A stretch of DNA of 32,000 bases from Promethearchaeota archaeon. Its GTDB lineage: Archaea; Asgardarchaeota; Lokiarchaeia; Sigyniarchaeales; Promethearchaeaceae. Position 1 is the stretch's first letter. Each line of letters starts with the position of its first letter. The stretch lies in assembly GCA_016933055.1 (NCBI GenBank), contig JAFGBS010000028.1, positions 240,001-272,000 on the forward strand, read 5' to 3'. This document shows positions 6,001-28,614 of this stretch, one piece after another. The translations under genes were made by a program, and so were the position numbers. Under the pieces are notes generated by a model. That model had not been told where the DNA came from and did not search any database. It saw nothing but the letters and a program-made list of their open reading frames with translations.

Positions 6001-6966
6001 ATTCCTACTTCGATTATGTTTGCATCATTTCTAAGTAGTCTTGTGTTATATTTGGAGATGGTAGGAGAGAGATATTTTCCAATCTTTATGAACAAAATTA
6101 CTCGTTTAATCCGTAGTATTAGTGCATTTATTATTTCTATTATTCTATGCTATTGGATCTATTCCTATATGGAAAATACATTTAATTTTGAAATCGCTTT
6201 AGCTGTTTCGATTCTTTTATTCACAATTTTAAGCCAATTAATATTCAATCCTTGGGAGTATAAAAAAGTCGCCGGTCCAATATTTTGGGGTTTTATTTCT
6301 GCCGAAATCGGATATCTAATCAGTAATATTGTCATAGTAAATAATATTCTACTTGGGATCGCTTCTGGACTGATTTTAATGGGATTGTATCCAATAATTT
6401 TTGAATTTTCACGCTTTGTGGACTTTTTCAGAAATATCGTAGAAAATATAAGAATTTTCTACCAGAAAATCATCTATTTCTTCAAAAACTTCTGGATTAA
6501 TCTAAAAAACTTTTATACGAAAAATAAAATATGGTTGACTCTTATCATGGTGTCGGCCATGTTTACAGGATTATTATTCGGGCTACGAATCCTCCTTCCT
6601 TTATACCAAGCAATGTTTATTAGCGCTTCGATAGCGTCTACATTTCTATTTCCGATCTTCATCACTCCAAAAGCTTTGAAAGACGAGAAATCGTTCTCCC
6701 GAATGGTTTATTATTCCGCAATTATCTATGTATTTGCAAACATCGCGATTTTTTCATTTGTGAAGATTAATATCATCTGGTTTTTGCTCTCATTAGTTTT
6801 ATTCAGTTCGATCTTATTAGTAGTGATTTATCGGCAAGAGACCCTATATAATTTATCGGTGCGCTGGAGATTGATTGGGTTGATAATAACGATATTATCT
6901 GCGGTTGTTCTCGTCTCCATGGTAGTTTTATATGTTATTGGGTTGATTTCCATAAAGTTTTTCTAA
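1..6966 (+). CDS. Giant polytopic membrane protein of unknown function, 5'-truncated at the window edge (>2320 aa)
   Basis: The frame of the 49..6966 ORF is open from base 1 (TGG ACA AAA TAT GTT AAT CGC... = WTKYVNRELNNQIRCIVW), so the true start lies upstream. It has dozens of hydrophobic 20-25 aa segments with short basic loops and no recognisable catalytic motif. Confidence 0.85.
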   Translation, partial: WTKYVNRELNNQIRCIVWIIFQVIISISVALLLELTWYGRILLFLQIYSILMPPLNYFLKNAGFKVIKWTERTEEFTKLLMVITSTAYLANLSLSTFFIHLHSSTTKILGYVPFLLLIVHIIFHITYFRKETSLKRFYRTYNLSFPFIMISLYLIRYQTQIYELFPPWVPVLSIISPILSVILLWFALFYYYSMVKQFNIILNFFYQFILIFIGSIYILHLVIIPLSTQYGYGYLHTDQILVSCAITFIGFYYIRKAAYFEIYKGFLQEEPVRFRSIGIIAGILRTVGVILFVGSILRLVNVIFNIAITRWTITTLNLWQLSLINSIFNWSLASFLGLFLFLFFLKGYFKNFDQYSYNSRFIIRIFTVLAASFAVGMTVILYETTYLFALPPILVGCYFWLYFIQKKNPYRANLTIGAAKSILVFFFVFWTLHQYIFRYLFGSILISSSLLTTIELLLSAGITGFVFSRTFQNIILKGKNTFSWILLVSSVSAICYSCFLSLDNLGLIISEPTIELDFTLNLTLTLNFGILLLYLAVAVHQWKISKKIWDVAWWLWLFLPIINFTIIYQSIRGIDTITESFFVFGLEVSGSVLLTIIISTLLYLPIILTKFQKAYKWFFFLTWIEAIPVWIWLAPNIFRDPNSIYLSPLFVTGLSLISAVPLLFSLKYWRIIAGVWILIALINAMFLSILIDISFIPDMIMDVFIHITVYGLYIIIFISNPLIRESWKNYDYGILVGYLLMIIGASVVVFGFSYVLTLDYLYAISISAFFTGIIMISGRYVKLIHNRLNPYAVLLMAAGIGLGSFLFLYEFKLFPVNLDFTWTFLNQTLQNTVFPFSIALISSGGIILLAQARQLINKKHWRLMYAFFAVGIGVAIGSVLDSLLDLPNPLFAAIVTFWSVLSSYPTFRYKKPIFWGLFPLFIASLSVYGFEQLNIGFNWSFHTIIGVNYTFWIFSFSLASLIIHKVVSLYFMRKYLKVTRELTDMGISDYKTLPFDDEDDVLMIQQKEIAVNLIQSLEILPQFYTTPRKIASLYSLFLSLSLYSLSYFISFITPIPLLFQIEVFIFLISVSTFINLAYIKRNDIFQNLHTIRFIRFIATNLLYASILYGIIILNRIIIPIIPELVSGFSLTANLTLSLNIALDSIFFYVIFIILSQWIAFYNKLITLMVKIISWITFITAISYFLYAITSFTYIVVLIVTIGSYLIVIHLRNFHKHYAMTLRLLTDTLSSSSEKMTALEDYEENEYLEAQSKVLGIDSPIPIPPPLEIHYEDLASEADFMEVKEVLDAILPLDSSEMPFTADSLSSQISSKKSLSDTLELRAKQEKRSKILYSIIGFFDAWIKQGIILELSYLASLIFSNMFPNINEISLYHVYVFRLFMFLCIATTFYNFKKLIPANYRLVVVQILSTLFMVTTILTPFSVISVYGTELNLIIDRYYWSNIMFLVSITIFLLLLQIQLVIRNYVETKNVHLRQLIIDKWNDVIQPMLLILAAYIIANIISINTPLITRLIIAALILFTEAIIEKYILKIFNRLTRARLLLYSWILINILGIIQVVQFLPTLKFSWTLGILMLLILAFLQYITLYLYYSLKNEKIIRTYNINPIVLNHFLFRMMNRHVDWAKKRSPKHLYQQYEHSEKLITYNDFIKPKYNFMALITYILISALLSALIYESSIKSFILGYITELKALGVSINNLSALWNHPTGLQLLILSGLPIIIAIILSFGLFFQDKFTFRILHAITRDIFLILLWVLISGGILFYSLALLQLWKGITYSNLLTPGMIAIISIAQYYTIYLITDIAIHSTKNIDKLESEFSSINLETMSHSDLMELLAKIEPKRLKIIKNLNMILGIIIYGTLSVIAYLIVYIFSQSIILSLSGALLIVYGQSELNYYILKAFPSKISFYYSLMSWICFSVLISFSIPIVFWGNNPEWVVNSDLNIVVYITNGFFVSTCFCIFSILSFATLFILKRKYSDYTIKFQWMKYLRIGTYFTITAVVFVLFIPTSIMFASFLSSLVLYLEMVGERYFPIFMNKITRLIRSISAFIISIILCYWIYSYMENTFNFEIALAVSILLFTILSQLIFNPWEYKKVAGPIFWGFISAEIGYLISNIVIVNNILLGIASGLILMGLYPIIFEFSRFVDFFRNIVENIRIFYQKIIYFFKNFWINLKNFYTKNKIWLTLIMVSAMFTGLLFGLRILLPLYQAMFISASIASTFLFPIFITPKALKDEKSFSRMVYYSAIIYVFANIAIFSFVKINIIWFLLSLVLFSSILLVVIYRQETLYNLSVRWRLIGLIITILSAVVLVSMVVLYVIGLISIKFF

Positions 6967-6994
6967 TTTGCCCAATACATTGTTTAAGGTAATA

Positions 6995-7717
6995 ATGAAA
7001 GACTCTGATTTCCATATGCATTCGAATTATTCGGATGGTTTTAACTTGATAAGAGAAATGGTGGAAGCTGCAATTGATCGAGATTTAAAAAATATCGCAA
7101 TAACCGATCATATAAGTGCATCGGGTCATTTTTTATATACATTTAGCAAATCCCGCCTATCGTTAGAAAATTATCTCGATGAAATTACTCGCCTAAGAAG
7201 GAAGTATGAAAAAAAAATACATATTTATGCAGGAGTAGAAATCACAGATGATTTTGTACATACTCCTAAATCCCACCTTCTGGAAAATAAGTTGTATGAG
7301 TATATAGATTTTATCTCCCTTATCTTGATCGAAACAATCTTAATCGCAGAACCCGTCAGAACTGCTCTTAATGTGCGAGAATATTTGAATCAAATTGGAG
7401 ATGAACAGATTTTGGTGGTATTTGCTCATCCCGATTATAGCGCCATGAATTTTTCCACTTTTCAATTGCTTTTAAAGAACCGTATCGGTTTCGAATTAAA
7501 TGAGAGTAAATTATCAGAGAGAGATGCTGCTTTCTTTTTAGAATTTGTAAATCAATTAAGTCAAAAAGAGAAGAAGGATTTACTCATTACCGTCGGTAGT
7601 GATGCTCATCGTGTTAAAGATGTAGGAAGACTAAATTTTGTTTTTTCAATAGTTGAGGATAATAATTTATGGAAATATGTGATCACTCCTCCAAAAGTTC
7701 AAGATTTCATTCTATAA
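6995..7717 (+). CDS. PHP-domain phosphoesterase (HisK/PolX-PHP-like)
   Basis: All PHP metal motifs are present: DFHMHSNYSDG, AITDH, GVE, HPD, GSDAH. ATG at 6995 preceded by AAGGT is preferred over TTG 6968. Confidence 0.88.
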   Translation: MKDSDFHMHSNYSDGFNLIREMVEAAIDRDLKNIAITDHISASGHFLYTFSKSRLSLENYLDEITRLRRKYEKKIHIYAGVEITDDFVHTPKSHLLENKLYEYIDFISLILIETILIAEPVRTALNVREYLNQIGDEQILVVFAHPDYSAMNFSTFQLLLKNRIGFELNESKLSERDAAFFLEFVNQLSQKEKKDLLITVGSDAHRVKDVGRLNFVFSIVEDNNLWKYVITPPKVQDFIL

Positions 7718-7830
7718 TAATTACTTATGATGATTAGACTTTAGTTGTAACAGAATTAACCAGAAAATTTTTAACTCTGCTTTAATTGTAGCAAGAATAT
7801 TATTTCTATATTTAACCACAGTAAATTACT

Positions 7831-7837
7831 GGGGTGA
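7831..7837 (+). promoter_or_regulatory. Shine-Dalgarno site for the UPF0147 gene
   Basis: GGGGTGA lies 4 nt before TTG 7842 and matches the archaeal SD consensus GGAGGTGA. Confidence 0.6.
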
Positions 7838-7841
7838 TTTT

Positions 7842-8129
7842 TTGCCTCGAAAAACTAAAAAGCAGATTCAAGAGGAAATAAATGAAATCCTCGAGCAAGC
7901 GAATTATTTATTAGATCAGATATCAGCAGATAATTCTGTACCACGTAATATTCGTCGTGTTACGGGAGAAGCAACGGAAGCAATCAATGATACAGAAGAG
8001 TCTCCTGCAGTGAATGCAAGTAACGCTATATCCCTATTGGATGATTTATCGCAAGATCCAAATTGCCCATTGCATACACGAACCCGAATTTACCAGATCT
8101 TATCCTTACTCGAACAAATTAGAGATTAA
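7842..8129 (+). CDS. UPF0147 family archaeal protein
   Basis: 95 aa helical protein with the family signatures DNSVPRNIRR and DPNCPLHTRTRIYQILSLLE. Confidence 0.85.
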   Translation: MPRKTKKQIQEEINEILEQANYLLDQISADNSVPRNIRRVTGEATEAINDTEESPAVNASNAISLLDDLSQDPNCPLHTRTRIYQILSLLEQIRD

Positions 8130-9649
8130 GTTTTTTCTTTTTCTTTTTCGTCTTTTTTTTGAATGAATATATCAAGTCCAATTGTTACGAGACGCGGACC
8201 AAAGGTGACGATAACAAACACATTCTCCCTAGATCCTCGCTCTATTCTACCATCTCTAATAGAATAAAAAATTGTTCTCTGGCCATATGTACTCGCAAGA
8301 AGGTGGTCTGGAAAATTAAAATCTGCTCGAAATTCTTCGGCAGCATGAGTATGAAGATTATATTGAGAATCTTCCATTGATTTTTGAACAAAAAAATAAT
8401 GGAGATCAAGAAAGTTGCCCATTTCATTCTCATTTATAACAAGACTCGTTGTTGTATGATTTGATTTAATCGTGATAAATCCCGATTTCATGAGGGGGAA
8501 TTGTTCTTTAATTTCTTTCATTATGTGATCGATGGTATCTTGGATAGAAATAAGTTGAGTGATGCAAAAACTCTGAACTTTTATATCATACCCTAAGTGA
8601 ATCTGATGGGAATTGTCAAATTCGGAATCTAATTTGTATGTAATATAGTTTTCTATAGGTTTCTTTTTGGATACGATTCCAAAGAATCGATTTGCATTGC
8701 GAAAAGCCCATATTCGCAATAAATTTTTAAATTTAAGATTTAGTATCTCGGTAGCTTCATGCCACCCGCGAACTAGTTGGGAAGATTCAAGAGTAGGGGC
8801 ACCACTCGCTAATATAATTCTATTCCACCAATTTTGTATGAAACCTGGGATTTGAAATAAGCGAGTAAAAAAAGTGGTTGGAGTTTCTCCTCCCAACATT
8901 CTGAGATTTAATTCCAAAAAAACATTTGATTGAAATTTGTATTTATCAATATTAAGAATAAGATCATTCCAATTTCCGCTGGCAATAATTAATGGATGAG
9001 TAACATCTAAGCTGGAAGTAATTTTAGCCATAGAATTAGCAATATTGCCGTTATCCAGAAGTGGAAGAATTCCTAAATGTAAATTAATAAAATCAATTTT
9101 TAACGGAAGATTCTGGATTTTTATCCATTTAATAAATTCTTCAAAATCGTCAGATCTTAGGTATTCTGCTTGATACAGAGGATATACTACGATTCCAACT
9201 ATTTTTGCTTTATTTTTTGAGTAAAATGCCTCTAATTTGTTTTGTCCATTTTTTTCAGGGTAGATTGAGGCAAGCATTTTCGAAGATGAGATAACTTTAC
9301 CCATTTGTAGGGTGAAATCGTTCGGAATTCCGAATTTTTCATTCAATTCTATCGCTTGTAGGATTGGTAGGTGAATTGTACTGGATTCCAGTTCCAATTC
9401 TAATTGTTGATATGTTATTTTTCTTCGATAAAATACGGGATGACCATGGATTTTTAGTTTCAATAATTCTTGTACAGGTTTTGGAAATGAAATTTCATCG
9501 AAAATGGGCCAAATCTGGCCATCAATGTTTGGAAGATAATAGGGGTTTGAATAGTTTATTCCAAAAATGCATGAAAAATTAGGACAATATAGTTTTTCCA
9601 TATAATCCACCGATCCATATAAATAATAAGGGATTATGGGAGTAAACAC
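8126..9649 (-). CDS. Fusion protein: degenerate amidohydrolase_2-like TIM barrel + C-terminal YjbQ (UPF0047) domain
   Basis: N-terminal part has IVGIVVYPLYQ, NVFLELN, RIILASGAP and RNANRFFGI, echoing GIKLHP / NVYFDTS / RILFGSDYP / ENAARLFGL. C-terminal part has NHTTTSLVINENE, DHLLASTYG, DGRIERG and TFGPRLV, echoing YjbQ HTTA..INE / SHIKASLLG / DGPR. The exact start is uncertain. Confidence 0.65.
   Translation of the reverse strand: MFTPIIPYYLYGSVDYMEKLYCPNFSCIFGINYSNPYYLPNIDGQIWPIFDEISFPKPVQELLKLKIHGHPVFYRRKITYQQLELELESSTIHLPILQAIELNEKFGIPNDFTLQMGKVISSSKMLASIYPEKNGQNKLEAFYSKNKAKIVGIVVYPLYQAEYLRSDDFEEFIKWIKIQNLPLKIDFINLHLGILPLLDNGNIANSMAKITSSLDVTHPLIIASGNWNDLILNIDKYKFQSNVFLELNLRMLGGETPTTFFTRLFQIPGFIQNWWNRIILASGAPTLESSQLVRGWHEATEILNLKFKNLLRIWAFRNANRFFGIVSKKKPIENYITYKLDSEFDNSHQIHLGYDIKVQSFCITQLISIQDTIDHIMKEIKEQFPLMKSGFITIKSNHTTTSLVINENEMGNFLDLHYFFVQKSMEDSQYNLHTHAAEEFRADFNFPDHLLASTYGQRTIFYSIRDGRIERGSRENVFVIVTFGPRLVTIGLDIFIQKKDEKEKEKT
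8130..8160 (+). terminator. Probable oligo-T intrinsic terminator after UPF0147
   Basis: The T-rich tract GTTTTTTCTTTTCTTTTTCGTCTTTTTTTT directly follows the stop. It is also the Lys/Glu-rich tail of the convergent gene. Confidence 0.4.
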
Positions 9650-17803: not shown

Positions 17804-18484
17804 ATGGATACGATGGATAGGATGTCCGATCCCATTTTTCAGAAATACCCCAATGCATCAAGAGTAAAAAATAGAGAATATCATTTGCAAATCCCACTTA
17901 CTAAAGACGTTAGTATTTTTATCAATTTCAAGCGATATCCTTATCCTCCAAATGTGAAACTCGTAAAAGAATCGGGTGAGAGGTTTCGTCTTACTACTGT
18001 TTTATCCCATCTAAGGGATTGGAATGTGAAAGAACCCTTTAGTTTAGTTTCAGTTATAGATGAAGTTTTCTTATTAGTAGAAAGTATCATTAATCGGCAG
18101 ATTCCTTTCACAGAATCATGTTTTCAAGGATTAATCGACATATGTAAGGAAAATCATCCGAGAAAAATACAAGGAGTTTTATCCGTTCATCAAGGAAAAG
18201 TATCACAGCTTATTATTCCTGCAATTGAATGCTCGGAACCAGAGAATAGGATTAATTATGTCAATTTTCAATCTATGTGTGTTCTTCCTTTCGATTTATC
18301 CTACGAAGGAACATTTATTTCTCGACCCGATGGAAATTTAAGCATAAATAGGAGACTAAATCGAGTGTTTCGGAAACGAAGATTTACAATGCTTCTTGGT
18401 CATCCATATGATAATCCGGAAAATGTGAGATTATTTGATCGGGATGGAAGAGAATTAAGTTATGTCATTTTAAGTAATAGATAG
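17804..18484 (+). CDS. UEV/UBC-like (BRE/BRCC45-like) domain fused to a catalytically inactive JAB/MPN domain
   Basis: N-terminal part has YHLQIP..IFINF..YPYPP..LSHLRDWNVKEPFSLVSVIDEV with no catalytic Cys. C-terminal part has HPRKIQGVL, GTFISRPDG and LLGHPYD..NVRLFDRDG, following archaeal JAMM proteins but without the E/H/H/D residues. Confidence 0.65.
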   Translation: MDTMDRMSDPIFQKYPNASRVKNREYHLQIPLTKDVSIFINFKRYPYPPNVKLVKESGERFRLTTVLSHLRDWNVKEPFSLVSVIDEVFLLVESIINRQIPFTESCFQGLIDICKENHPRKIQGVLSVHQGKVSQLIIPAIECSEPENRINYVNFQSMCVLPFDLSYEGTFISRPDGNLSINRRLNRVFRKRRFTMLLGHPYDNPENVRLFDRDGRELSYVILSNR

Positions 18485-18499
18485 TGAAATTTTTTCAAG

Positions 18500-19642
18500 T
18501 CATGGTTCAAAGTTATTCACAATGTCTCGGATTCGTTCTAATTTTGTGATATCTCCATTAGGACTTAGCTCATCTGATACTCCTAATATTAAATTTGGAG
18601 AAAAGGTTTCAAGAACTTTTCGTGTATAATTTTCCACATATTCCAAGGAGTATTGGGGTAAAAATAGAATTGAAGGTACACCATCTAGCAAAATTTTGTC
18701 CCCAATATATTGACTTAATTCATCAATGGTCACATCTCCTTGTGGATCACAAGTTAAAGCTTCTAGTCCATCGAATGGTAATTTTTCAAAATAAGGGAGA
18801 AGTTGCTTGAATGAACCATCTATGTGGATATGAGTAACAATACCAACATTTCTTAATTGTTTAACTCGCTTTTCATAATAGGGAAGTAAATATTTTTCGA
18901 AAATAGGTGGAGGGGATAGGTTCGCATCAATATTTTCCCCGAAATTAACAATACGAACTGGAGATTTTTCAACTAGATTGTACATTTTGTCATCCCATTC
19001 TTCCATATAAGCCATGAAATCTATCATTTCATTCGGTTTACGTTTTAGTAGTACAGTTGTCCTCGTAAATCCCATAATTGTTTTTATTAATCGCTGGTAT
19101 GGCGTTGAAAATACATAGAGACTTGCTATACCTCGTGATCCTAATAATTGTTCAGCTTCTTCGAAATTTTCTTGATTAAACTGAAATTCAGTATTGTCTA
19201 AAATATATTTCATAATAGGGATATCCTCAATCGATTTTACAGGAAATTCAATATAATGGGCACCAAGACCTCCCCCAATTGCCTTAGTTTCAGTTAGAAC
19301 ACCTAGAGGGGTTGAATAAACTGTAATAGTTTCTCCCTTTTTAGATCCTCTCTTGGATCTTATGTGGATTCCAGCTTCTGGTTTAATTTTAGTGCTTAGA
19401 ATCGGTAGATATAGAGTTTCTTCTGCATATCGGGGACTAGCATCCAACATATCATATATTTCTAATTGGGTTTTTCCTATGAACCTATCAGGAACTGGTC
19501 CTTTGAGATATTTATCAGGCTTTTTAACCAGTAAATTATTTCCCAGGTACCAATAATAAATTCGAGGACTATATACAATTCGGTTTATTGAAGTATGGGA
19601 AAATGTATCCCATAATCGATCCCGCAGAGATTTTACAGCCAT
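18500..19642 (-). CDS. Second URO-D/MtaA-like family protein
   Basis: Motifs YSTPLGVLTE, EFPVKSIED, NFGENID, FEKYLLPYY, HIHIDG, GLEALTCDPQGD and GVSDELSPNGD. Confidence 0.8.
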   Translation of the reverse strand: MAVKSLRDRLWDTFSHTSINRIVYSPRIYYWYLGNNLLVKKPDKYLKGPVPDRFIGKTQLEIYDMLDASPRYAEETLYLPILSTKIKPEAGIHIRSKRGSKKGETITVYSTPLGVLTETKAIGGGLGAHYIEFPVKSIEDIPIMKYILDNTEFQFNQENFEEAEQLLGSRGIASLYVFSTPYQRLIKTIMGFTRTTVLLKRKPNEMIDFMAYMEEWDDKMYNLVEKSPVRIVNFGENIDANLSPPPIFEKYLLPYYEKRVKQLRNVGIVTHIHIDGSFKQLLPYFEKLPFDGLEALTCDPQGDVTIDELSQYIGDKILLDGVPSILFLPQYSLEYVENYTRKVLETFSPNLILGVSDELSPNGDITKLERIRDIVNNFEP

Positions 19643-19693
19643 TTTCTCGCCAATAAGTGTTAATTATTTGTACAAACTTTACCAGAAAATAGA

Positions 19694-20797
19694 TTAAAGT
19701 AAATCTTCTGGAATTTCTCCTTTATAATATTGAGGACGTGTGACCCAGGATTTCTGAAAATCGGGCAAACTGCTTAATATCGAACCGCCTATCCAACAAG
19801 AAAAAAATCGTTGTTTCGGAGCAATAATTCGTGGCTCTCGCATTTCCTTTCCTCTCTGGGCCAATTCAATTTCCAATTCATTTTGTAACCGAAATTCTAA
19901 TTGAGGTATAATAGAAGTCCCTCCAGACAGAAATATATTTTCTAACAGTTCATTTCGTGTATCTAAATCACAATTATCAATAACATCCAAAATCGCAGTG
20001 TGCAGTGGTTTCTCCTCCAGATTAAATAATGCAGGCTTAAACAGTAATTCAGGTACCGTGAATCGTTCAATCCCGAGTTCGATCATAGATCCATCTGGAA
20101 GTCGAAATTCCTTATTTTTTACATGGTATTTATCTTGGTTGTAATCTAACGAAACAAAACAAGCCCGTTCCTTCAGAACTCTGCCAATTTCCCTACGAAC
20201 TGAAGAATCGGTTGAGAATCCTGCATTTTGAAGTTGTTCATACATAAAAGTATCAAGAACTGTCCCCCCTATTTGAAGAATCTCAATAGCATGACTTAAC
20301 ATATATCCTTGATAAATTGGAACAATTCTAATTGAGCTTGCACCCATTTCTACCACCAATCCCGTTTGAAAACCTCCGGAATACATTGTTAAAAGCGAGT
20401 CTAGGATTGGATAAAATCCCATTACTTGATATTTATCAAAAAATAATTCAAAAAGCCGTCGTTTTTCTTCAGTAGAAAGCATAGGATGATAGGAATAAAG
20501 AACATTTACTATGGAAGGGTCTATGCGTAAGGTATAAAACACATAATCCAAAATTTGCTCAAAGAAATTCCAATCTTCGATTCTCCCTCCTATGATAGGG
20601 TGATGAATTTTGTATAGTCCGATTGAACTTGAAATTTCATTTCCAACATAATATTGCTTTTTATAATCCATTTCGATGTCTTGGTATTTAGGTTCTCCTA
20701 CAAGTGAATAGAAATTGTTGCGTGGTTCATTTTCTCCTGCAAATCCAATTTTACTAGAAAACTCTCCGATATCTAGAACAATTGTGATATTTGTCAT
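19694..20797 (-). CDS. Actin-family protein (divergent Asgard actin/ARP-like)
   Basis: Colinear with actin: IVLDIGEFSSKIGFAGENEP, YVGNE, EDWNFFEQI, TGLVVEMG..IRIVPIYQG, LPDG, ERFTVPELLFKP, NIFLSGGTS, IIAPKQR and WIGGSILSSL..FQ..W. Confidence 0.93.
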   Translation of the reverse strand: MTNITIVLDIGEFSSKIGFAGENEPRNNFYSLVGEPKYQDIEMDYKKQYYVGNEISSSIGLYKIHHPIIGGRIEDWNFFEQILDYVFYTLRIDPSIVNVLYSYHPMLSTEEKRRLFELFFDKYQVMGFYPILDSLLTMYSGGFQTGLVVEMGASSIRIVPIYQGYMLSHAIEILQIGGTVLDTFMYEQLQNAGFSTDSSVRREIGRVLKERACFVSLDYNQDKYHVKNKEFRLPDGSMIELGIERFTVPELLFKPALFNLEEKPLHTAILDVIDNCDLDTRNELLENIFLSGGTSIIPQLEFRLQNELEIELAQRGKEMREPRIIAPKQRFFSCWIGGSILSSLPDFQKSWVTRPQYYKGEIPEDLL

Positions 20798-20812
20798 ATT
20801 ATCAACCGTAGG

Positions 20813-21565
20813 TTATCCTAACAAGATCTTCAAGGGAACATACTCCGTTAAGGGTATAAAAGCTTCTCCGTAGTCACAATTAATTTCGTTTCCCCGTATC
20901 GTTGCAGTATCTTTTGCCCATTCCAATACTCGATCTAAGACTTCTATTTGAGATGCATATATTTTTTGGAAAATTTTTTGTTTTTTCTCCCAATATTGTG
21001 AAATATCTACAGTAATAAACACATTTGCATCAACATATTGAAATTTACAACTCGGACTTTCATAACAATACACTGCGGAAGGCATAAAATCTTTCCCGAA
21101 ACCACCATAGGCTCGTCCTGTAGCAGTATGATAGATTGCTTCTCTTACTATTTTTGCAAGCTTGCGATGAGTACGATGTACATCTGTTGGATGGGGAAAT
21201 AGAATAACTTGAGGTTGGTGTTTACGAATAAGATTAGTGAATTTTGAAATTAAAGGTCGTGTAACAGTTATTTCCTCGTACTTCATCTCGATAAAATCAC
21301 ATTTCAAATATTTAGTTACTAATTCAAATTCTTTCGCTCTCATTTCCGCAATTTTTTTTTTTTCGCTCGCTTTCGCATATCCTCCCAATCCACTGGTAGC
21401 TACAACGGTAGTAATATTTGTTCCCAATTCTGAATATTTTAAAATTGTACCTCCTGCTGAAATTAATTCATCATCAGGATGACCACAAAAAATCATCATG
21501 GACTCCGGAACTACTAAAGGAATATTATCCGGTTTGGCACGTACTATATTTGGAAGATCGGTCAT
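20813..21565 (-). CDS. PIG-L/LmbE family N-acetyl-sugar deacetylase
   Basis: Motifs GHPDDELISAGGT, MRAKEF, IRKHQPQVILFPHPTDVHRTH, VDISQYWEKK, YASQ and YGEAF. Confidence 0.88.
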   Translation of the reverse strand: MTDLPNIVRAKPDNIPLVVPESMMIFCGHPDDELISAGGTILKYSELGTNITTVVATSGLGGYAKASEKKKIAEMRAKEFELVTKYLKCDFIEMKYEEITVTRPLISKFTNLIRKHQPQVILFPHPTDVHRTHRKLAKIVREAIYHTATGRAYGGFGKDFMPSAVYCYESPSCKFQYVDANVFITVDISQYWEKKQKIFQKIYASQIEVLDRVLEWAKDTATIRGNEINCDYGEAFIPLTEYVPLKILLG

Positions 21566-22143
21566 AGAATTTTCAACTGGAATGGTAACTTGAAATAGGG
21601 AGTGTCAAAACCCATATGAGATTTGAGATAATCAATACGAGGTTCAAAAACTTGAAGAAAAGGTACATCTTCCCCCTCTTTTATGACGGAAAGGAAATAA
21701 TGCGGGACATTTTCAGGGACTTTAATGCACATTCCATCGACATATTCCACTGCAACTATATCTCTCGGAGTTATCTCATCCAACTTTTGTTGTATTATTT
21801 GGATACGGGCAGCAAAATTCTTCCGAGGAAGTGTTTTTTGAATGAATTTTTTGGGTAATATTGGGAATATTGCGTATGATTTTCCTGGATGCTTTAAAGG
21901 TTGGCATATTTTAATTACCCATTCGGGGAAAGGATGAACCTCAAAATATTCCGTAATTTGTTCATGTAAGTTTAAGTCTCCTAAAAATAAGGTTCCCGCA
22001 ACGGAGAATTCATCGTGGGTCTGCCATGTTATCGTTTCAGGAGGTTGTTGGGAAATTTCGAATAGATGATGAAATTTGTCTTTGTGAGAAATGTATTCAT
22101 GGATATTGATGATGTTCTCAGGAATTTGGTATTCTATACTCAT
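21562..22143 (-). CDS. Hypothetical protein with a cupin-like C-terminal motif
   Basis: GMCIKVPENVPHYF resembles cupin motif 2 (G-x5-P-x-G-x2-H). It has a 4-bp ATGA overlap with the PIG-L gene. Confidence 0.55.
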   Translation of the reverse strand: MSIEYQIPENIINIHEYISHKDKFHHLFEISQQPPETITWQTHDEFSVAGTLFLGDLNLHEQITEYFEVHPFPEWVIKICQPLKHPGKSYAIFPILPKKFIQKTLPRKNFAARIQIIQQKLDEITPRDIVAVEYVDGMCIKVPENVPHYFLSVIKEGEDVPFLQVFEPRIDYLKSHMGFDTPYFKLPFQLKIL

Positions 22144-22149
22144 AAAAAA

Positions 22150-23187
22150 CTACTCCTTAACGGATTGTAAAAGCCTGATATGGCATATTAATTCTTCTGT
22201 GGATATTTCATTTTTTTGAAAGCGTTTTCCCAGTTCGCTAATAATATATAAGGGAGTAAATGTGAAAAAATGGATTTCTGAAAGGGGATAGAGAAAATCT
22301 TCTACCTCAATTATTAATTTCAGATCTCTGAGTTTTTGATAGGACTGGATATCTTGGGAGATCATATCTAAAAAGCGTCCGCGTTTTAGTTTATTTTCAT
22401 ATAAAATCTTTAAACTGTTGTAAATTTGGGAATCGCTTAACAGTTTAGAAATTTTCATCAAGTTCTCTTCATCATCTTTTTCAGGTCTATAAGTATTAAA
22501 AAATTCGATCAAATAAGATATATATTTTTTATCCATATCATCATTACTTTCTAACAACGCATGATATAAGTCATTTGGGGGAATTCGACCCCCATATACA
22601 TCCTTTATCATGTAAAAATTGTTCGATCCATGTATTGTGTTTTCTGTAACCAATCCTAAATGTTGGAATGGAGTAATTAAAATATCGAAATTTGTCTCAG
22701 CAAGACCATATCGTGTATTTAGATTTTGACATAAGTTGTCTTTGCTAATTACCCCCTTTCGGAGGGAATTTAATATAATTAATTTATGTTTATCCTTGTA
22801 AAGGTTGAAAAATAGTTGATCTCGATTCAATTTGGAATAATCTTCAATCATGGAGTAGGTTTCAGATAAAATTCGGGAAAAATTAGGTTTTCCGATAGCA
22901 TTAAACAAAGTGGGTGATAAATTAAGGAAAACATCTTGGTATTTGCTGGAATTTTCTTTAATGTTTAACTCTAATAATGAGAAATAGAATTCATTGTGTG
23001 ATTTGTACATGATTGATAAGTAATTTTGATGGTCTTCGACAAAATTAACTATTGATTCATTATTTAGCTCATGTAATGCCCAAATGCGAAGGAGTATTTC
23101 CTTTTTGGGAAATTCGAGATCTGGAGGATATTGTCTGATAGGAGCGGGTCCAAGTTGATGGTCCCATTTAAAAATAGATAATTTCAC
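22150..23187 (-). CDS. Longin/uDENN-like N-terminal domain protein (paralog of 30622..31701)
   Basis: N-terminal FKWDHQLGPAPIRQYP matches the uDENN-type first strand and GP..YP turn. It has winged-helix-like segments (LNSLRKGVISKDNL) and is colinear with the 359 aa paralog. Confidence 0.6.
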   Translation of the reverse strand: MKLSIFKWDHQLGPAPIRQYPPDLEFPKKEILLRIWALHELNNESIVNFVEDHQNYLSIMYKSHNEFYFSLLELNIKENSSKYQDVFLNLSPTLFNAIGKPNFSRILSETYSMIEDYSKLNRDQLFFNLYKDKHKLIILNSLRKGVISKDNLCQNLNTRYGLAETNFDILITPFQHLGLVTENTIHGSNNFYMIKDVYGGRIPPNDLYHALLESNDDMDKKYISYLIEFFNTYRPEKDDEENLMKISKLLSDSQIYNSLKILYENKLKRGRFLDMISQDIQSYQKLRDLKLIIEVEDFLYPLSEIHFFTFTPLYIISELGKRFQKNEISTEELICHIRLLQSVKE

Positions 23188-23327
23188 TTATTTTTCCACC
23201 TCTCGCCCCAGTATTATTAATTTTGTACAACTAGTGAAAATGTCACCTAAAAAAAATATCGATCCCTTGTTGTTTTTCGTCGAGAATATGAAGAAATTGA
23301 GGAAAAATATTAGACTAATAATCGTTA

Positions 23328-24407
23328 TTATGATTTGGTTTCGATTTTTTCATAGTCATCTTCTTCTTCATCTTCTTCCTCTAAAGCTTTAAGACGCTGC
23401 TCAACCCGCTTATCTTCATCCTCGATGATATTTTTCTTTTTTTCTTCCAATTCTTTTAATTCCAGTTCTTTTTCCGCTTTCTCCAACTCTGCTCGTTTTC
23501 GATTGATCTCCAATTCTTGTTCTAACATTTCGGCTTTTTGTTTGATCATTTCCTCTTGAATTTCTTTCTCTTTCTCTTCGACTAGTAATTTTGCTTCCTT
23601 GAGCGCTATTTCCTTCTCACGAAGTGCTTGTTCTTTTTCCTCTATTTCCTTTTTCTTCTGATCAAAAAGGTTTTCTTGTTCTTTGCGTTCTTTTTGGTGA
23701 GCAACTTCTTCCTCACGCTTTTTAATTTCTTCTTGCTTTAATTTTACTTCTTCTTCGGTGAGATCTTTTTCTTTCTTATCCAGAACTTTTTTCTGAATTT
23801 CAAGATGCTTTTTCTCCATTTCCTCAGATTCTAGATTTTTTACGTTCACTATTTCCTTTAACACTATTTCTGCATTCTCATGTGTTTGCTCATCGGAAGT
23901 AGATTTAAGAAAATCCAAAATTTTATCCTCAACTTCCAACTGGCAATGTTTTCCTAGTGTTTTCAGAAATGCTATGGCTTTTTTTTGTACAAAATCCATT
24001 TCATCAGCTAACATTGATACAACGGTATCAATTAGCGATTTGGTATCATTTGGATGGGCGTTTGCGGTAAAAGTCAATAATTGGAGCATACTTTCACGGG
24101 TATTTGCATTATCCGAAACAAGATATTCTTTAGCGAAAGGTAAGATAAGTTGGGGATCTTTTTCAGATAATGTCTTGAGTGACAATATTAAGGAATATCG
24201 TAGAACATCATTCTCAATACCTATAAGCTTTAACAAGGCAGGATAGATTGCTTGGATGGTTCCAGGATATTCAGCGACAATACGATTGAGATTGTGTATT
24301 AAATTCTCTACAAATTCATCATTATTAACTTCAGACAAACGTTCCAATATTTGATCTATGGCTGTTTGGGTTTTTTCTTGTCCCAACAGCGTAAAGATTT
24401 CTTCCAT
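23328..24407 (-). CDS. HEAT/ARM-repeat protein with a long charged coiled-coil C-terminus
   Basis: Repeats such as LLKLIGIENDVLRYSLILSL, YLVSDNANTRESMLQLL and MLADEMDFVQKKAIAFL, then about 150 aa of E/K-rich heptads and an acidic tail. Start is at 24407 (MEEIF) or 24431. Confidence 0.75.
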   Translation of the reverse strand: MEEIFTLLGQEKTQTAIDQILERLSEVNNDEFVENLIHNLNRIVAEYPGTIQAIYPALLKLIGIENDVLRYSLILSLKTLSEKDPQLILPFAKEYLVSDNANTRESMLQLLTFTANAHPNDTKSLIDTVVSMLADEMDFVQKKAIAFLKTLGKHCQLEVEDKILDFLKSTSDEQTHENAEIVLKEIVNVKNLESEEMEKKHLEIQKKVLDKKEKDLTEEEVKLKQEEIKKREEEVAHQKERKEQENLFDQKKKEIEEKEQALREKEIALKEAKLLVEEKEKEIQEEMIKQKAEMLEQELEINRKRAELEKAEKELELKELEEKKKNIIEDEDKRVEQRLKALEEEDEEEDDYEKIETKS

Positions 24408-24420
24408 ACTATTCTCTCTT

Positions 24421-25413
24421 CTATATTTCATTTAATAGATTTATACTTTCGGCTTCCATTAGGGTAGATAATTTATTAAATACAAAATTCACATCGTCAA
24501 ATGTAGAATTTTTATTAACTTCGACGCTTACCTGTAAATCTAATTTTTCAGTAAAATTGAAGGTAGTGCGAGGAAATTTGGGACTTAAATCTTCAGTTAT
24601 TTGACTAAATCTTTGATCTAATTGTTCATCCTCAATTTGAATGATATTTTTTCGTTTAATTCCGATTTGTAATAATGTTTCTTTACCAGAAACGGCATCC
24701 AAATCGATTCTAAAATCTTTTCCCTCAGCATACAGCGGAATTATGAGATCTAAAATCTCCATGGAGTCAATCTGTTCTTTATGAGTGTTGCAAATTGCAT
24801 ATCCTTTATGAAGATCTGCTATAAAAAGTGTGTTCGATCTCCAGATAATAAAGTAATTAGAACTTACGTCATAAATAAAGGAACCTTCTCGAATCATTTT
24901 TTCCCTTTTCAAAATCGTGCGTAATATACCCGGTCGTTCTTTGCGGGTTTTACTGTAAATCGCTGGTGTATTGGATTTTGAAATGATTTTATTGATAGTT
25001 TTGATTCCTTCTTCATTAAGTCCTTCTACCCCTAAATCTCTGGTCAATTTGAGGAGTTCTTGGGCATCCCGTCCAAAAAATAACTTAAAAAAATCCTCGT
25101 TATAAATTATCACATCAACAGGAGTAAAAAGAGTGGTTTTTCCTTCAATGAACCGGTTTATGTTTGATAGTACTTGATTGTAGCAAAATACTGGTAATTC
25201 TTTTAAGCTACTTCCTGATAATATACGAACGTTTATTAGAAATCGACGTCTACACATTGGATTTAAGACATTATTCATACGATCTGAAACACATTCATTG
25301 CATAAATTGTCAATATACTCCTTAAGATATCCCATCATGATCTGCTGTTCACGAGGGCGTATGTTCTTAAACACCTTGTGGAGATTTTCTGGAGTAAATG
25401 ACATATTTTTCAC
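24421..25413 (-). CDS. Hypothetical soluble protein with an N-terminal Cys cluster
   Basis: 330 aa ORF containing LCNEC...PMC....FC. Tightly packed in the minus-strand run. Confidence 0.7.
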   Translation of the reverse strand: MKNMSFTPENLHKVFKNIRPREQQIMMGYLKEYIDNLCNECVSDRMNNVLNPMCRRRFLINVRILSGSSLKELPVFCYNQVLSNINRFIEGKTTLFTPVDVIIYNEDFFKLFFGRDAQELLKLTRDLGVEGLNEEGIKTINKIISKSNTPAIYSKTRKERPGILRTILKREKMIREGSFIYDVSSNYFIIWRSNTLFIADLHKGYAICNTHKEQIDSMEILDLIIPLYAEGKDFRIDLDAVSGKETLLQIGIKRKNIIQIEDEQLDQRFSQITEDLSPKFPRTTFNFTEKLDLQVSVEVNKNSTFDDVNFVFNKLSTLMEAESINLLNEI

Positions 25414-25427
25414 CGATTTTGGTATTT

Positions 25428-27143
25428 TTAGGAGCGTTGTATATATTTTTCCCTTTCTTCTATTTTTTTAACATAGAGATTTGCTGCATTCAGAATATCT
25501 TGCTCATTTAGAATATCTTTATTGAGTTTTAATTGAATTTGTTGAATAAAGGTACGACAATTATCTAAGCTCAGATTTCTACCGCGTTCTTGGATCGTCT
25601 TGTGTAATAACTCTGCCTCATAATTTAATCTTTCTTCTTCTGTACCAACAGAAATTTCCTTTATTGGAGGAGGTAACGGTTCAGCAATAGGAGGATCCGT
25701 ATGTGTAAACATATCATGTAGGAAAGATTGTTTTTCTTGCTGTTTTTTTTCTTGAAATTCCGTGTATTTGTCCACTGTTTCTTCTCCCTTCTTATCCGCG
25801 ACATCTGTTTTAGATTTTGAGGACTCCTTTGGTTTTAAACCTACGATGTCATTTTTCACAAGTGGAGATCGTTCAAAAGTAAGTTTTTTGTCTTTAACTC
25901 CTGCGAATTTTCCTGATCGAGGAATTTGTGTCGTTTCTCGTTTTCTTTTTAAATTAGTGGGATCTTCAGTTAATGAGCTTATAGAAGGTATTTCAATTTT
26001 TTGCCCAGATTTTTGAGTACCCAAACCATCGAGAGATTTTACAGTAATAACGTCTTTGAAGGTGACCCTTTGAGGTGCCATAAACGTTTTCTCTGCTGGT
26101 TTTTCTTCTATTATTTGGTCTACAGGGATTTCACCTTTTAATTCCATGACTTTTTTTCGGAATAGAGCTACATATTCTAGTTCTTGATATTCTTCCGCAA
26201 TTTTGATAAGTTGTTCTATGATTTTTATTGCTTGGGGGTAATCATCTTTCTCAATAGCTTTGTTGCTCTCAACTATGAGATCTTTGAATCTGGGGGGTAA
26301 TGAACGTTTTAACTCTAAATGTCTTTGTAATAGCTCCTTTATCTGAGTGACCTTTTCATCGTCTGTTATATCATATACAAAAGACTCCGATTTTAATTCG
26401 GTGGAGTATTGCTCTTGGAATTTGTTTACTACGACTGCATCTAAATTTTTAGAATGGGATAAGAGAAATACCTTTCTCGTAAAAGGAACTTCTCGTTTAA
26501 ACAAATTAATAAAATTCTCAATTTTTCTGGTGCTTTTTTCAAACGAATTGAATACAAAAACAACCAAATCCGATCCTCTTATATAATTTCCCCATAATGG
26601 AGAAAAATCATCTTCTAAGATGAAATCCCATAAATCGAAATATAAATTTCCTAATTGGATTTTGTGTACCCTCGCAAAATCCATTATGTCTCGTGTTTCC
26701 TCTCCTTTTTTAGATAATCGTTCTGCTAAAGCTGTTTTTCCACTACCCCAGGGTCCAATAAGCGTAATTTTGGGATGTAGAGAATAATGAATTTCTTCAA
26801 TTAATCCATCGAGTTCTCGTTTATTTTCCATTTCGGATACAAGATCTTCCACATTTAAACCACTCCCGGATAATGTGTTCGATAGAGTTTTTATCTCATC
26901 TTGGACGCTCTTAGATTTATCGCCTGTATCTGTCACAAATATATAGAAGATATCATTTAATTGTCCAAAAACAATTTGGAAATTAAAAATTGGTCGGTGA
27001 AACAGTTGATTCTGAGCGGGCTTTACGATAAACTCATTAATTTTATCTAGAACTTGCTCAAACTCTTCACTCGTATACGCTAGTGCAAAGCTTCGCCTAT
27101 AAATTACTTTTTTGTCTTTAAGTAAGAATACTTGTCTTAACAT
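25428..27143 (-). CDS. Longin-domain + small GTPase-like (degenerate G3/G4) + helical/low-complexity protein
   Basis: Longin-like N-terminus (RQVFLLK..VIYRRSF ... FYIFVTD), P-loop GPWGSGKT, LWDF..F..LW.NYIRGSDLVVFV, a helical hairpin (KAIEKDDYPQAIKII) and a charged linker. Confidence 0.8.
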   Translation of the reverse strand: MLRQVFLLKDKKVIYRRSFALAYTSEEFEQVLDKINEFIVKPAQNQLFHRPIFNFQIVFGQLNDIFYIFVTDTGDKSKSVQDEIKTLSNTLSGSGLNVEDLVSEMENKRELDGLIEEIHYSLHPKITLIGPWGSGKTALAERLSKKGEETRDIMDFARVHKIQLGNLYFDLWDFILEDDFSPLWGNYIRGSDLVVFVFNSFEKSTRKIENFINLFKREVPFTRKVFLLSHSKNLDAVVVNKFQEQYSTELKSESFVYDITDDEKVTQIKELLQRHLELKRSLPPRFKDLIVESNKAIEKDDYPQAIKIIEQLIKIAEEYQELEYVALFRKKVMELKGEIPVDQIIEEKPAEKTFMAPQRVTFKDVITVKSLDGLGTQKSGQKIEIPSISSLTEDPTNLKRKRETTQIPRSGKFAGVKDKKLTFERSPLVKNDIVGLKPKESSKSKTDVADKKGEETVDKYTEFQEKKQQEKQSFLHDMFTHTDPPIAEPLPPPIKEISVGTEEERLNYEAELLHKTIQERGRNLSLDNCRTFIQQIQLKLNKDILNEQDILNAANLYVKKIEEREKYIQRS

Positions 27144-27300
27144 TTGTATGTGCCCACTGAAATGCAGTTTGTGTAAAAGCTATATGCTATATGGTTATTA
27201 CACATTTATATCCATTTTCCCATTTACATCCTATTAATCGTTTATCGTAACATTTTAAATTTCATTCATGTAATTTTTGCTTATAATCGAGAGGATAGAA

Positions 27301-28614
27301 ATGGTATTAGTAGTGATAGTTGGTAATGGAGCTAGAGAGCATGCTATAGCACGGTCATTAGTAGAAGGAGGCGCTAGGTTAAAAGCATTTATGGGGTCAA
27401 ATAATCCCGGTATCGCAAAGCTTGCTAAAGATAATGTGAAGATATCTAATTTGACGAATTTTAAAGAATTAGTTGAATTTTCAAAAGATGCAGATTTTGT
27501 TGTGGTGGGACCAGAAGCCCCATTGGTAGTTGGGGCTGCAAATGCATTAAAGTCTGCTGGTATTTCGTGTATAGGCCCGTCTATTGAAGCCGCTCAACTG
27601 GAGGGATCAAAGATATTCACTAGAGAACTTTTACAGAATTATAATATTAGATCTAATATTGAGTTTCAGGCATTCAATGCGATAGACAATGTAGAAACTT
27701 GGGTTGAAAAGTTAGGATTAGAAAATGTGGTTGTGAAACCTGATGGATTAACTGGGGGTAAAGGGGTTAAAGTATTCGGTGAACATTTGCATTCAAAATC
27801 GGAGCTTTTCGATTATTGTCACCAACTGTTGGATAGTCATAGTGGATTTGTCATCGAGGAAAAACTCAATGGTGAAGAGTTTACCTTACAAACATTTGTG
27901 GATGGATCCAATGTCACACCTACTCCATTAGTACAGGACCATAAACGAGCATATGAAGGGGATGAAGGTCCTAACACAGGAGGGATGGGCTCCTACTCTA
28001 TGACAAATCATGTTATGCCTTTCATTACTCATGAAGATGTAAAATTTGCCCTGTCGGAGATGAAACAAACAATTTCTGCTCTCAAGAAAGAAACAGGTGC
28101 AATATACAAGGGATTTTTGTATGGACAATTTATGAAGACTAAAAAAGGTATCAAATTAGTCGAATATAATGTTCGATTTGGAGACCCCGAAGCCATGAAT
28201 GTTCTTAGTATTATGGAAAGTAATATGGTTGCCTTATGTTTCCAAATTCTGGAGGGAACTTTACCTGATGATCTTCGATTTAAAAAAGCCGCAACAGTTT
28301 GTAAATATATAGTCCCCGAAGGATATCCAACAAATCCTGTGAAAAATCAACCTATTCAAGTGGATGAGAAGTCATTGGACGAATTGGGAATATTATATTA
28401 TTACGCTTCTGTAGATAAGAGAGGAGAAAAAGTTGTCACAACTGGATCGCGAACTATGGGATTATTAGGAATTGGTTCAAGTTTAAACGAAGCAGAAAAA
28501 AAGGCCGAGCTTGCCACACAATTTGTGAAAGGACCTTTATACCACCGTAAAGATATTGGTACCCAAGAATTATTGGAAAAACGGATTGCCCACATGAAAA
28601 AAGTGATAAAATAA
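27301..28614 (+). CDS. purD: Phosphoribosylamine--glycine ligase
   Basis: Motifs VGNGAREHA, VVGPEAPL, AQLEGSK, VVKPDGLTGGKGV, QDHKRAYEGDEGPNTGGMG and EYNVRFGDPE. ATG at 27301. Confidence 0.97.
   Translation: MVLVVIVGNGAREHAIARSLVEGGARLKAFMGSNNPGIAKLAKDNVKISNLTNFKELVEFSKDADFVVVGPEAPLVVGAANALKSAGISCIGPSIEAAQLEGSKIFTRELLQNYNIRSNIEFQAFNAIDNVETWVEKLGLENVVVKPDGLTGGKGVKVFGEHLHSKSELFDYCHQLLDSHSGFVIEEKLNGEEFTLQTFVDGSNVTPTPLVQDHKRAYEGDEGPNTGGMGSYSMTNHVMPFITHEDVKFALSEMKQTISALKKETGAIYKGFLYGQFMKTKKGIKLVEYNVRFGDPEAMNVLSIMESNMVALCFQILEGTLPDDLRFKKAATVCKYIVPEGYPTNPVKNQPIQVDEKSLDELGILYYYASVDKRGEKVVTTGSRTMGLLGIGSSLNEAEKKAELATQFVKGPLYHRKDIGTQELLEKRIAHMKKVIK

Follow-up and report, generated by a model that had tools for sequence, protein, structure and literature searches.

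The stretch of DNA analyzed here (the window; 32,000 nucleotides) spans positions 240001-272000 of one contig (C2) in the assembly of a Promethearchaeota archaeon, which totals 3.76 Mb in 36 contigs and is 91% complete. Its list of open reading frames (ORFs) holds exactly eight consecutive minus-strand ORFs between positions 18500 and 27143, named g1 to g8 in order of transcription. They encode a longin-fused Arf-like GTPase (g1), an orphan protein (g2), a HEAT repeat and coiled-coil protein (g3), a longin protein with winged helices (g4), a protein without a family (g5), a PIG-L/LmbE-family deacetylase (g6), an actin paralog (g7), and a member of the URO-D superfamily (g8). The linkage of g1, g2, and g3 is conserved at order level in Loki-type Asgard archaea, whereas the order of all eight genes is a genus-level arrangement and not one ancestral operon.

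Spacing and Chance Expectation

The gaps from g1 through g8 are 14, −11, 140, 6, −4, 15, and 51 bp, six of the seven being ≤51 bp; the g2/g3 spacing becomes +13 instead of −11 bp if g3 begins at Met9, as in its ESM Atlas record. The genes and spacings are those given by the initial annotation, which had described eight minus-strand genes with mostly tiny gaps or overlaps. In a crude ORF call on the whole genome (3041 ORFs of at least 100 aa), there were 36 co-directional runs of at least eight genes, 15 of which had every gap ≤150 bp. The run is in the upper tail, yet it is not exceptional. The same genome carries ∼55 small GTPase genes, eight members of the g4 family, and three genes of the actin family. 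With the share of eukaryotic signature protein (ESP) genes set at 4–5%, the figure for ‘Candidatus L. ossiferum’ (PMC9834061), our rough binomial estimate is that ∼0.3–1 eight-gene stretch with four ESP-type genes would occur per genome. Because a chance stretch is expected this often, co-orientation and gene content alone are not significant, and conservation must decide.

Conservation of Gene Order

Synteny was compared in 40 relatives from four families (f1–f4, with f1 the family of the source genome) of the same order as the source genome, using g1 (aa 1-290), g2, g3 (aa 1-200), g4, g5, and g7 as queries; around 90 loci were retrieved and their ORFs labeled. Among these relatives, the g1–g7 order recurs only in one genome of the same genus (G001), with 65–82% identity. 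The G001 locus has ∼400 bp between g1 and g2 and lacks g8, the actin gene there being followed by the ortholog of the window gene at 17804-18484. Orthologs of g4 are present in 40 of 40 relatives, outside G001 at other loci, and in 19 genomes of other genera (∼33% identity) they lie amid VTT-domain, EamA, ABC-transporter, CPSase, or radical-SAM genes. Apart from G001 and the source, all genomes in which both genes could be placed have the actin paralog and the GTPase between 13 kb and several hundred kb apart. In eight f3 genomes, from two genera, it shares a contig with g1–g3 at a distance of 13–37 kb, and in closed f1 genomes it is ∼150–330 kb away.

The gene-order conservation by which the initial annotation proposed to check its module therefore fails for the full run, as the order is not kept beyond the genus. 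The arrangement is genus-level because G001 alone keeps g1–g7 and the g4 orthologs elsewhere lie amid unrelated genes. We consider it fairly likely that the run joins three older, separately conserved units, namely g1 with the g2–g3 pair (unit A), PIG-L followed by the actin paralog (unit B), and g4 followed by g5 (unit C).

Unit A provides the strongest conservation. Both g2 and g3 are single-copy in 36 of the 40 relatives and are absent from the same four genomes. They adjoin in tandem in 35 of the 36 relatives having both, across all four families, with the only exception split by contig ends. The spacing among relatives ranges from −32 to +71 bp, and the pair is probably co-translated. The g1 gene, taken as the best match of most genomes, adjoins g2 in 24 relatives and is next but one in three f1 genomes. 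In nearly all linked relatives it stands head-to-head with g2 across 150–330 bp, and it is upstream in tandem only in the window genome and G001. The closed 6.04-Mb genome G009 carries the triad with g1 at C1:130749-131615 (minus strand), g2 at 132864-133535 (plus), and g3 at 133851-134423 (plus). The flanks of the triad vary as well, with an M32 carboxypeptidase in f3 and purD in the window genome, G021, G036, and G014. The linkage has outlived an inversion and changed neighbors, which argues for selection. The link between the GTPase and the HEAT/coiled-coil protein, as first annotated, is thus borne out at order level, with g2 as a constant third partner that had been overlooked.

The Longin-GTPase g1

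The first gene of the run (25428..27143, minus strand) encodes 571 aa, comprising an N-terminal longin (aa 1-118), an Arf-like GTPase (aa ∼123-280), a helical region, a linker, and a C-terminal domain. The tail carries a conserved short motif near aa 355-375, which reads K-K-F-x2-P-x-K-I-x-F...V-K-P-L-P in the ortholog alignment, after which come a disordered, variable linker and, at the C-terminus, a conserved domain of ∼60 aa.

The AlphaFold2 model of the first 120 aa has a predicted local distance difference test (pLDDT) score of 86 and a beta2-alpha-beta3-alpha2 longin topology (E2-9, E12-18, H25-40, E46-52, E55-62, E65-71, H77-94, and H105-119). A Foldseek search with this longin gave 29 PDB matches at E ≤1e-3, all of them longin or roadblock proteins. 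The top matches were the AP-1/2/3 sigma subunits, with a template modeling (TM) score of 0.72 and E 4e-6, and VAMP7, SRX, and zeta-COP were also matched. For the GTPase, Pfam places Roc/Arf/Ras at aa 123-232, with Arf at 30.9 bits against a cut-off of 22.3, and a profile of 24 g1 orthologs has its best PDB matches in Arf6, Arf1, and Arl proteins (E 3e-10 to 4e-8). The description of g1 as a longin joined to a small GTPase is therefore upheld by fold and profile. An N-terminal amphipathic helix of Arf type, which serves membrane insertion, is not present in g1; the 118-aa longin stands in its place.

Among the nucleotide-binding motifs, the P-loop (G1, GxxxxGK[ST]) is intact in the window copy as GPWGSGKT, and its residues G130, G135, and K136 are conserved in the ortholog alignment except in the G004 and G011 copies. 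G3 reads WDF (WDFILE in the window copy) rather than DxxGQ with its catalytic Gln, there being no Gly-Gln in any of the 24 orthologs. G4 is kept as NKxD in f2 and f3 only, and reads T-H-x-x in f1 and SHSK in the window copy. The two orthologs that have moved away from g2–g3 (G004 and G011; alignment rows L057 and L059) have lost the P-loop, with GPHDKDRQ and GPNYTDRQ in its position. This loss hints at a stepwise decay toward a pseudo-GTPase in that family.

Two further observations concern the upstream side of g1. Five f1 genomes have a conserved protein of 366–472 aa, without a Pfam family, directly upstream of g1 on the same strand (L054:5652-6752:-, L055:5041-6459:-, L056:7576-8898:+, L057:17172-18494:-, and L059:4257-5405:+), and this protein is absent from the window. 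Its N-terminus has an AbrB/SpoVT-like motif (G-x-I-T-I-P-K-K-I-R-E), identified by eye only. It was also considered as a member of the g4 family, for which there was no match with the hidden Markov model (HMM). In the window, purD (GARS, three Pfam domains; 27277-28614, plus strand) is divergent from g1; with its occurrence near the triad in G021, G036, and G014, it is probably a remnant of older synteny.

The g2–g3 Pair

The second gene (24421..25413, minus strand) encodes an orphan protein of 330 aa that matches no family in Pfam or NCBIfam, the latter being without a family for any of g1–g5. Its N-terminal half is helical and carries the motif C-x2-C...(C)...P-x-C-x2-R...P-x-F-C, which suggests that g2 is probably metal-binding. 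The C-terminal alpha/beta domain resembles a type III secretion chaperone or YbjN fold. Of 201 Asgard genomes searched with a g2 profile, 142 (from 41 of 59 genera) have a single copy, and the Cys motif is kept. In Asgard classes beyond the Loki order, a protein of 836–1308 aa directly follows g2 on the same strand at 11 of 20 loci (loci L091-L110, e.g., L095:2455-6348:- and L092:6911-10837:+). All six of the giant proteins scanned contain long apolipoprotein-like helical repeats, and five of the six start with a TrmB-type winged helix. The g3 coiled-coil HMM has no match in these giant neighbors, and homology is not claimed.

The third gene (23328..24431, minus strand) encodes 367 aa, in which a HEAT-repeat region of ∼190 aa precedes an E/K-rich coiled coil of ∼170 aa, and probably starts at Met9, position 24407. 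The window copy has a sub-threshold HEAT_2 match (19.7 bits). Among 32 orthologs, Pfam HEAT matches 21, HEAT_2 20, Cnd1 15, and Adaptin_N 5, with a best E of 4e-9, and an ESM Atlas feature search led to HEAT/Cnd1 clusters of Promethearchaeota. These matches agree with the alpha-solenoid and coiled coil that g3 was first annotated with. An adaptin trunk (Adaptin_N, ∼500–600 aa) with an appendage is not seen in g3, where the short HEAT region leads into the coiled coil.

Transcription Units

Between g3 and g4 lies a gap of 140 bp (23188..23327, minus strand) that contains a T8 tract (23249-23256), which is also conserved in the G001 gap, an AT-rich box TTGTACAAAATTAATA at 23215-23230, and, ahead of the GTG at which g4 starts, a ribosome-binding site similar to GAGGTGG. 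A near-identical box, TTGTACAAATAATTAA, precedes g8 at 19660-19675. The AT-rich box occurs four times in the window against 2.6 expected, which is not significant. A scan for sigma-70 promoters and intrinsic terminators returned counts at shuffle level, and those models do not apply to archaea. The T8 tract and AT-rich box within this gap suggest at least two transcription units. The gap is likely a terminator with an internal promoter, which would make g1–g2–g3 and g4–g7 probable transcription units, and g8 possibly a separate one.

The Longin Protein g4 and Its Relation to g1

Gene g4 (22150..23187, minus strand, GTG start) encodes 345 aa, predicted to form a GAP-type longin (named for GTPase-activating proteins, GAPs) followed by tandem winged-helix domains. 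Its N-terminus reads W8-D9-H-Q-L-G13-P14; among 17 orthologs, G13 and P14 never vary and conservation of W8 is at least 90%. A GP motif before beta2 is reported to be specific to GAP-type longins (C9orf72, SMCR8, FLCN, and NPRL2), is shared with a class of Asgard longins, and is absent from the longins of DENN, adaptin, and TRAPP proteins (PMC12290439). In C9orf72, the essential W33-D34 precedes G38-P39 (PMC12290439), and the WD...GP spacing of g4 is the same. No Pfam family and no PDB profile match was found for g4. Its ESM Atlas model (pLDDT 0.84) has Asgard hypothetical proteins and ArsR-type winged helix-turn-helix (wHTH) proteins (aa ∼56-343) as structural neighbors, and aligns with Npr2/NPRL2 over aa 1-270/304 at a TM of 0.38–0.40.

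The initial annotation regarded g4 as a longin/uDENN protein resembling a guanine nucleotide exchange factor (GEF). This label is probably wrong, as the Atlas neighbors are of wHTH and Npr2 type with no DENN among them, Pfam and PDB profiles give no match, and the GP motif argues against it. On motif and model, g4 is better described as a C9orf72/NPRL2-like longin with winged helices.

The relation of g4 to g1 is visible at the level of families. Paralogs of the two are adjacent in six f3 loci, from six other genomes, where a giant protein is followed by a g4-family protein (with stop/start overlap) that faces a 345-aa longin-GTPase of the g1 family. The source genome has a further cluster on contig C16 (L119, G000:C16:218001-232500), where one strand encodes a 615-aa g1 paralog (7550-9397, minus), a 351-aa protein (6345-7400, minus), a DUF498 protein (5941-6303, minus), and a stand-alone 135-aa WD-GP longin (5436-5843, minus). 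The 615-aa paralog combines a longin with an Arf-like GTPase whose G domain is more canonical than that of g1, and the 351-aa protein has weak Pfam matches of coiled-coil type only. A PLD-like gene adjoins this cluster.

The g1 longin profile matches two genes of the source genome, and each has a member of the g4 family no more than 3 kb away, for which the chance is ∼1% each by our estimate (eight genes in 3.76 Mb). A functional tie between the g1 and g4 families is therefore plausible, since their paralogs adjoin repeatedly elsewhere; against it, the g4 ortholog itself lies elsewhere in other genera. The pairing of the GTPase with a regulator thus remains plausible at family level, with a regulator that would be GAP-like rather than GEF/DENN.

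In f3, a VTT-domain membrane protein (DedA/Tvp38/TMEM41-type) precedes the g4 ortholog on the same strand and a conserved 252-aa protein follows it (loci L017-L031, e.g., L025:11392-12234:-). The VTT neighbor fits a habit of the g4 longin family of pairing with membrane proteins. A match of g2 to the VTT-domain neighbor cluster of the g4 ortholog was also tried, in one profile comparison, which was negative.

The Actin Paralog and Remaining Genes

Gene g7 (19694..20797, minus strand) encodes an actin-family paralog of 367 aa from the Asgard group of actin-related proteins (ARPs), with a full-length Pfam Actin match (aa 5-357) of 263 bits, compared with 435 bits for the canonical Lokiactin of the genome. 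Its orthologs are 50–59% identical across f1 and f3, while g7 and Lokiactin are 40% identical. In the PDB, g7 matches actins at E 1e-73 to 1e-82, the nearest being the archaeal ‘HC1 actin’ and eukaryotic actins. The call of an actin paralog, distinct from Lokiactin, is thus retained.

Upstream of it, g6 (20813..21565, minus strand; 250 aa) is a PIG-L/LmbE-family deacetylase (Pfam PIG-L, 78.7 bits) with the metal-binding motifs GHPDDE (HPDD) and HRTH (HxxH) in its translation; the nearest NCBIfam model, BshB1, is below cut-off. In 11 f3 loci and in G001, PIG-L precedes the actin paralog in tandem, and in G003 the two genes are convergent. In five other f1 genomes its place directly upstream of the g7 ortholog is taken by a Ras-like GTPase of 142 bits (L086:7726-8295:-, with equivalents in L080, L082, L089, and L090). 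To our knowledge, no conserved upstream partner of a g7-type ARP has been described. A Ras-like GTPase gene also lies directly downstream of the canonical Lokiactin in the source genome (G000:C6:298955-299398 and C6:299695-300807, respectively, both minus strand), so that GTPase-actin adjacency recurs.

The family of g6 was therefore rightly assigned and its pairing with the actin paralog is conserved, but its tie to the triad is not. Likewise, an actin-GTPase module at this locus is not supported, given the distance of the actin paralog from the triad in other genomes (13 kb to hundreds of kb). In the genus-specific arrangement, the genes for actin, PIG-L, and URO-D ride along as passengers.

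Between g4 and g6, g5 (21562..22143, minus strand; 193 aa) has no Pfam or NCBIfam family. It is found in 16 of 41 genomes. In G036 its neighbor is the actin paralog, and only G001 and G007 have it beside the g4 ortholog, unit C being represented in two genera. The last gene, g8 (18500..19642, minus strand; 380 aa), belongs to the URO-D superfamily and is MtaA/CmuA-like, though below threshold, with 28 bits for Pfam URO-D and 29 bits for NCBIfam mtaA_cmuA, far under cut-off. It is probably unrelated to the other genes of the run.

Proposed Function and Alternative Explanations

We infer that g1, g2, and g3 act together, with g1 as a nucleotide-dependent switch, or, in f1, where G4 is lost, possibly a pseudo-GTPase scaffold instead. 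It would recruit or organize a g2–g3 complex, in which the coiled coil of g3 may dimerize or tether. Brought beside the triad in the source genus, g4 would be the best candidate for a regulator of g1 or for its partner in longin pairing, given that paralogs from the two families adjoin elsewhere. Unit B, g5, and g8 would be neighbors that show no tie to unit A. In this reading, g1, g2, and g3 would bind one another, and g4 would have a GAP or pairing action. A complex prediction with g1 (1-400), g3 (1-200), and g2 gave ipSAE (interaction prediction score from aligned errors) values of 0.01 and 0.24 against a mark of 0.32, which reads neither way.

Several observations count against a triad that works as one. 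The g1 gene is 10 kb from g2–g3 in G004 and 88 kb away in G011, with a degenerate P-loop in both, so part of the family can dispense with the link to g1. In f4, g2–g3 occurs with no clear g1 ortholog close by. The relatives are not independent samples, as most of the f3 genomes come from few genera. No recognizable fold or family was found for g2 beyond its generic alpha/beta domain. Outside the Loki order the partner of g2 differs, being the giant wHTH and helical-repeat protein, and the loci of other Asgard classes show no g1-like gene up to 6 kb from g2. Because the giants adjoin g2 there without a nearby g1, the older association is that of g2 with a long helical partner, and the tie to a GTPase is peculiar to the Loki order. 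In g4, the longin alignment has no invariant or near-invariant Arg that could serve as a catalytic arginine finger of the SMCR8, FLCN, or NPRL2 type, and g4 would match a non-Arg (C9orf72-like) partner at best.

The broadest alternative is that all eight genes form one operon for a proto-trafficking or membrane-cytoskeleton machine, combining a GTPase, its regulator, a coat or tether, actin, and glycan remodeling. The tight spacing speaks for it, with six of seven gaps at ≤51 bp, as do the g1–g7 order kept in the sister species G001, the family-level association of g1 and g4, the shared contig of the triad and actin paralog in two f3 genera, and the small GTPases that flank actin genes in five f1 genomes and at the Lokiactin of the source genome. 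However, the order is not kept beyond the genus, the g4 ortholog is in unrelated neighborhoods in 19 genomes, the actin paralog is ∼150–330 kb from the triad in closed genomes, and g8 is absent from its position in G001. The T8 tract and promoter-like box in the 140-bp gap, together with the ∼400-bp gap between g1 and g2 in G001, also speak against a single transcript, and we regard one operon as improbable. Of the single module that was initially proposed, the g1–g3 link (with g2) and the family-level g1–g4 association remain, and the full order and the actin link do not.

At the opposite extreme, the neighbors may have been brought together purely by chance in a genome with ∼5% ESP genes, with none of them working together. 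The 15 tight runs of at least eight genes, the ∼55 small GTPase genes, and the expectation of 0.3–1 such stretch per genome would allow for this, and GTPase genes of MK-D1 are generally not in operons with regulators (PMC10933270). Chance cannot account for a g1/g2/g3 linkage that is kept across four families although the genes were inverted and their flanks replaced, or for the recurrence of both the g1/g4 family adjacency and the PIG-L–ARP pair, and it is an unlikely explanation, if a little less so than the single operon. It is also possible that g2–g3 serves chromosome or nucleoid organization, with g3 as a condensin-type HEAT protein, g2 as its metal-binding partner, and the GTPase as a lineage-specific add-on. 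This would be in keeping with the 15 of 32 g3 orthologs that match Pfam Cnd1 (condensin subunit 1), with the nearest Atlas clusters, which are named likewise, and with the giant g2 partner of other Asgard classes, whose initial TrmB-type winged helix has a fold that often serves in DNA binding. The HEAT matches are, however, generic, as Adaptin_N, CAND1, GCN1, and Integrator models match too, neither SMC nor kleisin genes turned up in the loci that were inspected, and no homology was shown between g3 and the giant partner, leaving a nucleoid role about as doubtful as the single operon.

The reading of three joined units with a conserved triad can be extended further. The triad could be a minimal archaeal adaptor or tether, in which a sigma-adaptin-like longin joined to an Arf-like G domain sits on a short HEAT solenoid via a zinc-binding g2, with the C9orf72-like g4 regulating, and would then be a prokaryotic analog, possibly a relative, of Arf1–gamma/zeta-COP or the AP core. 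We offer this as speculation with a small chance of being right. More modestly, g2 and its long coiled-coil partner may form a phylum-wide, undescribed Asgard scaffold that was put under GTPase control in Lokiarchaeia.

Comparison with Known Systems

The components belong to kinds of protein already known from Asgard archaea. Fusions of a longin with a GTPase have been described from this group (PMC10933270), and g1 resembles them in its Rag/Arf-like GTPase core fused to a longin. It differs in its conserved neighbors g2–g3, the earlier paper having assigned no partners, and in a long tail that carries a conserved C-terminal domain, a G3 lacking Gly-Gln, and the loss of G4 in f1. Asgard genomes contain dozens of small GTPases and longin proteins, almost none of which are matched to partners. 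The lack of operons is noted to hamper such matching (PMC10933270). Although an eight-gene ‘proto-trafficking operon’ as a whole does not hold, the locus yields two assignments, that of g1 with g2–g3 and the recurrent one of longin-GTPases with GAP-type longins bearing the GP motif. A further outcome is g2, a Cys-rich Asgard family that is widespread, single-copy, and not covered by the family libraries searched. As far as the literature searched shows, there is no description of the conserved triad, the phylum-wide g2 family, or the longin-GTPase/GP-longin pairing.

‘Ca. L. ossiferum’ has three ARPs beside Lokiactin (PMC9834061), and g7 corresponds to these ARP-type paralogs, which are distinct from Lokiactin. 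What sets g7 apart is its conserved upstream partner, PIG-L in f3 and the source genus or a Ras-like GTPase in other f1 genera.

With the longin GAP complexes, CSW (C9orf72-SMCR8-WDR41), GATOR1 (NPRL2-NPRL3), and FLCN-FNIP, as well as the GP-motif longins of Asgard archaea (PMC12290439), g4 shares the W-D-x3-G-P motif, placed in the loop between beta1 and beta2. The targets of CSW are Arf GTPases, a family that g1 resembles. The likeness of g4, drawn from sequence and model, has its bounds, since the TM is only 0.38–0.40, there is no conserved arginine finger, and winged helices rather than a DENN or NPRL C-terminal module follow the longin.

The AP and COPI coats join Arf1 with gamma/zeta-COP or sigma-adaptin and a large HEAT subunit (e.g., PDB 3tjz, 2vgl), and the locus likewise encodes a HEAT protein together with a sigma-like longin on an Arf-like G domain. 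The AAGAB pseudoGTPase with a sigma subunit (PDB 9ddt) is another system for comparison. The best match of the g1 longin is AP sigma (TM 0.72). The differences are considerable. The HEAT region of g3 is ∼190 aa, compared with ∼600 in adaptins, and Adaptin_N matches 5 of 32 g3 orthologs. The locus also lacks a mu-homology domain, an appendage, and a beta-propeller, and the g1 longin matches VAMP7, SRX, and TRAPP nearly as well. If the triad binds as proposed, it would offer a simple system for how GTPase-controlled scaffolds worked before eukaryotic coats.

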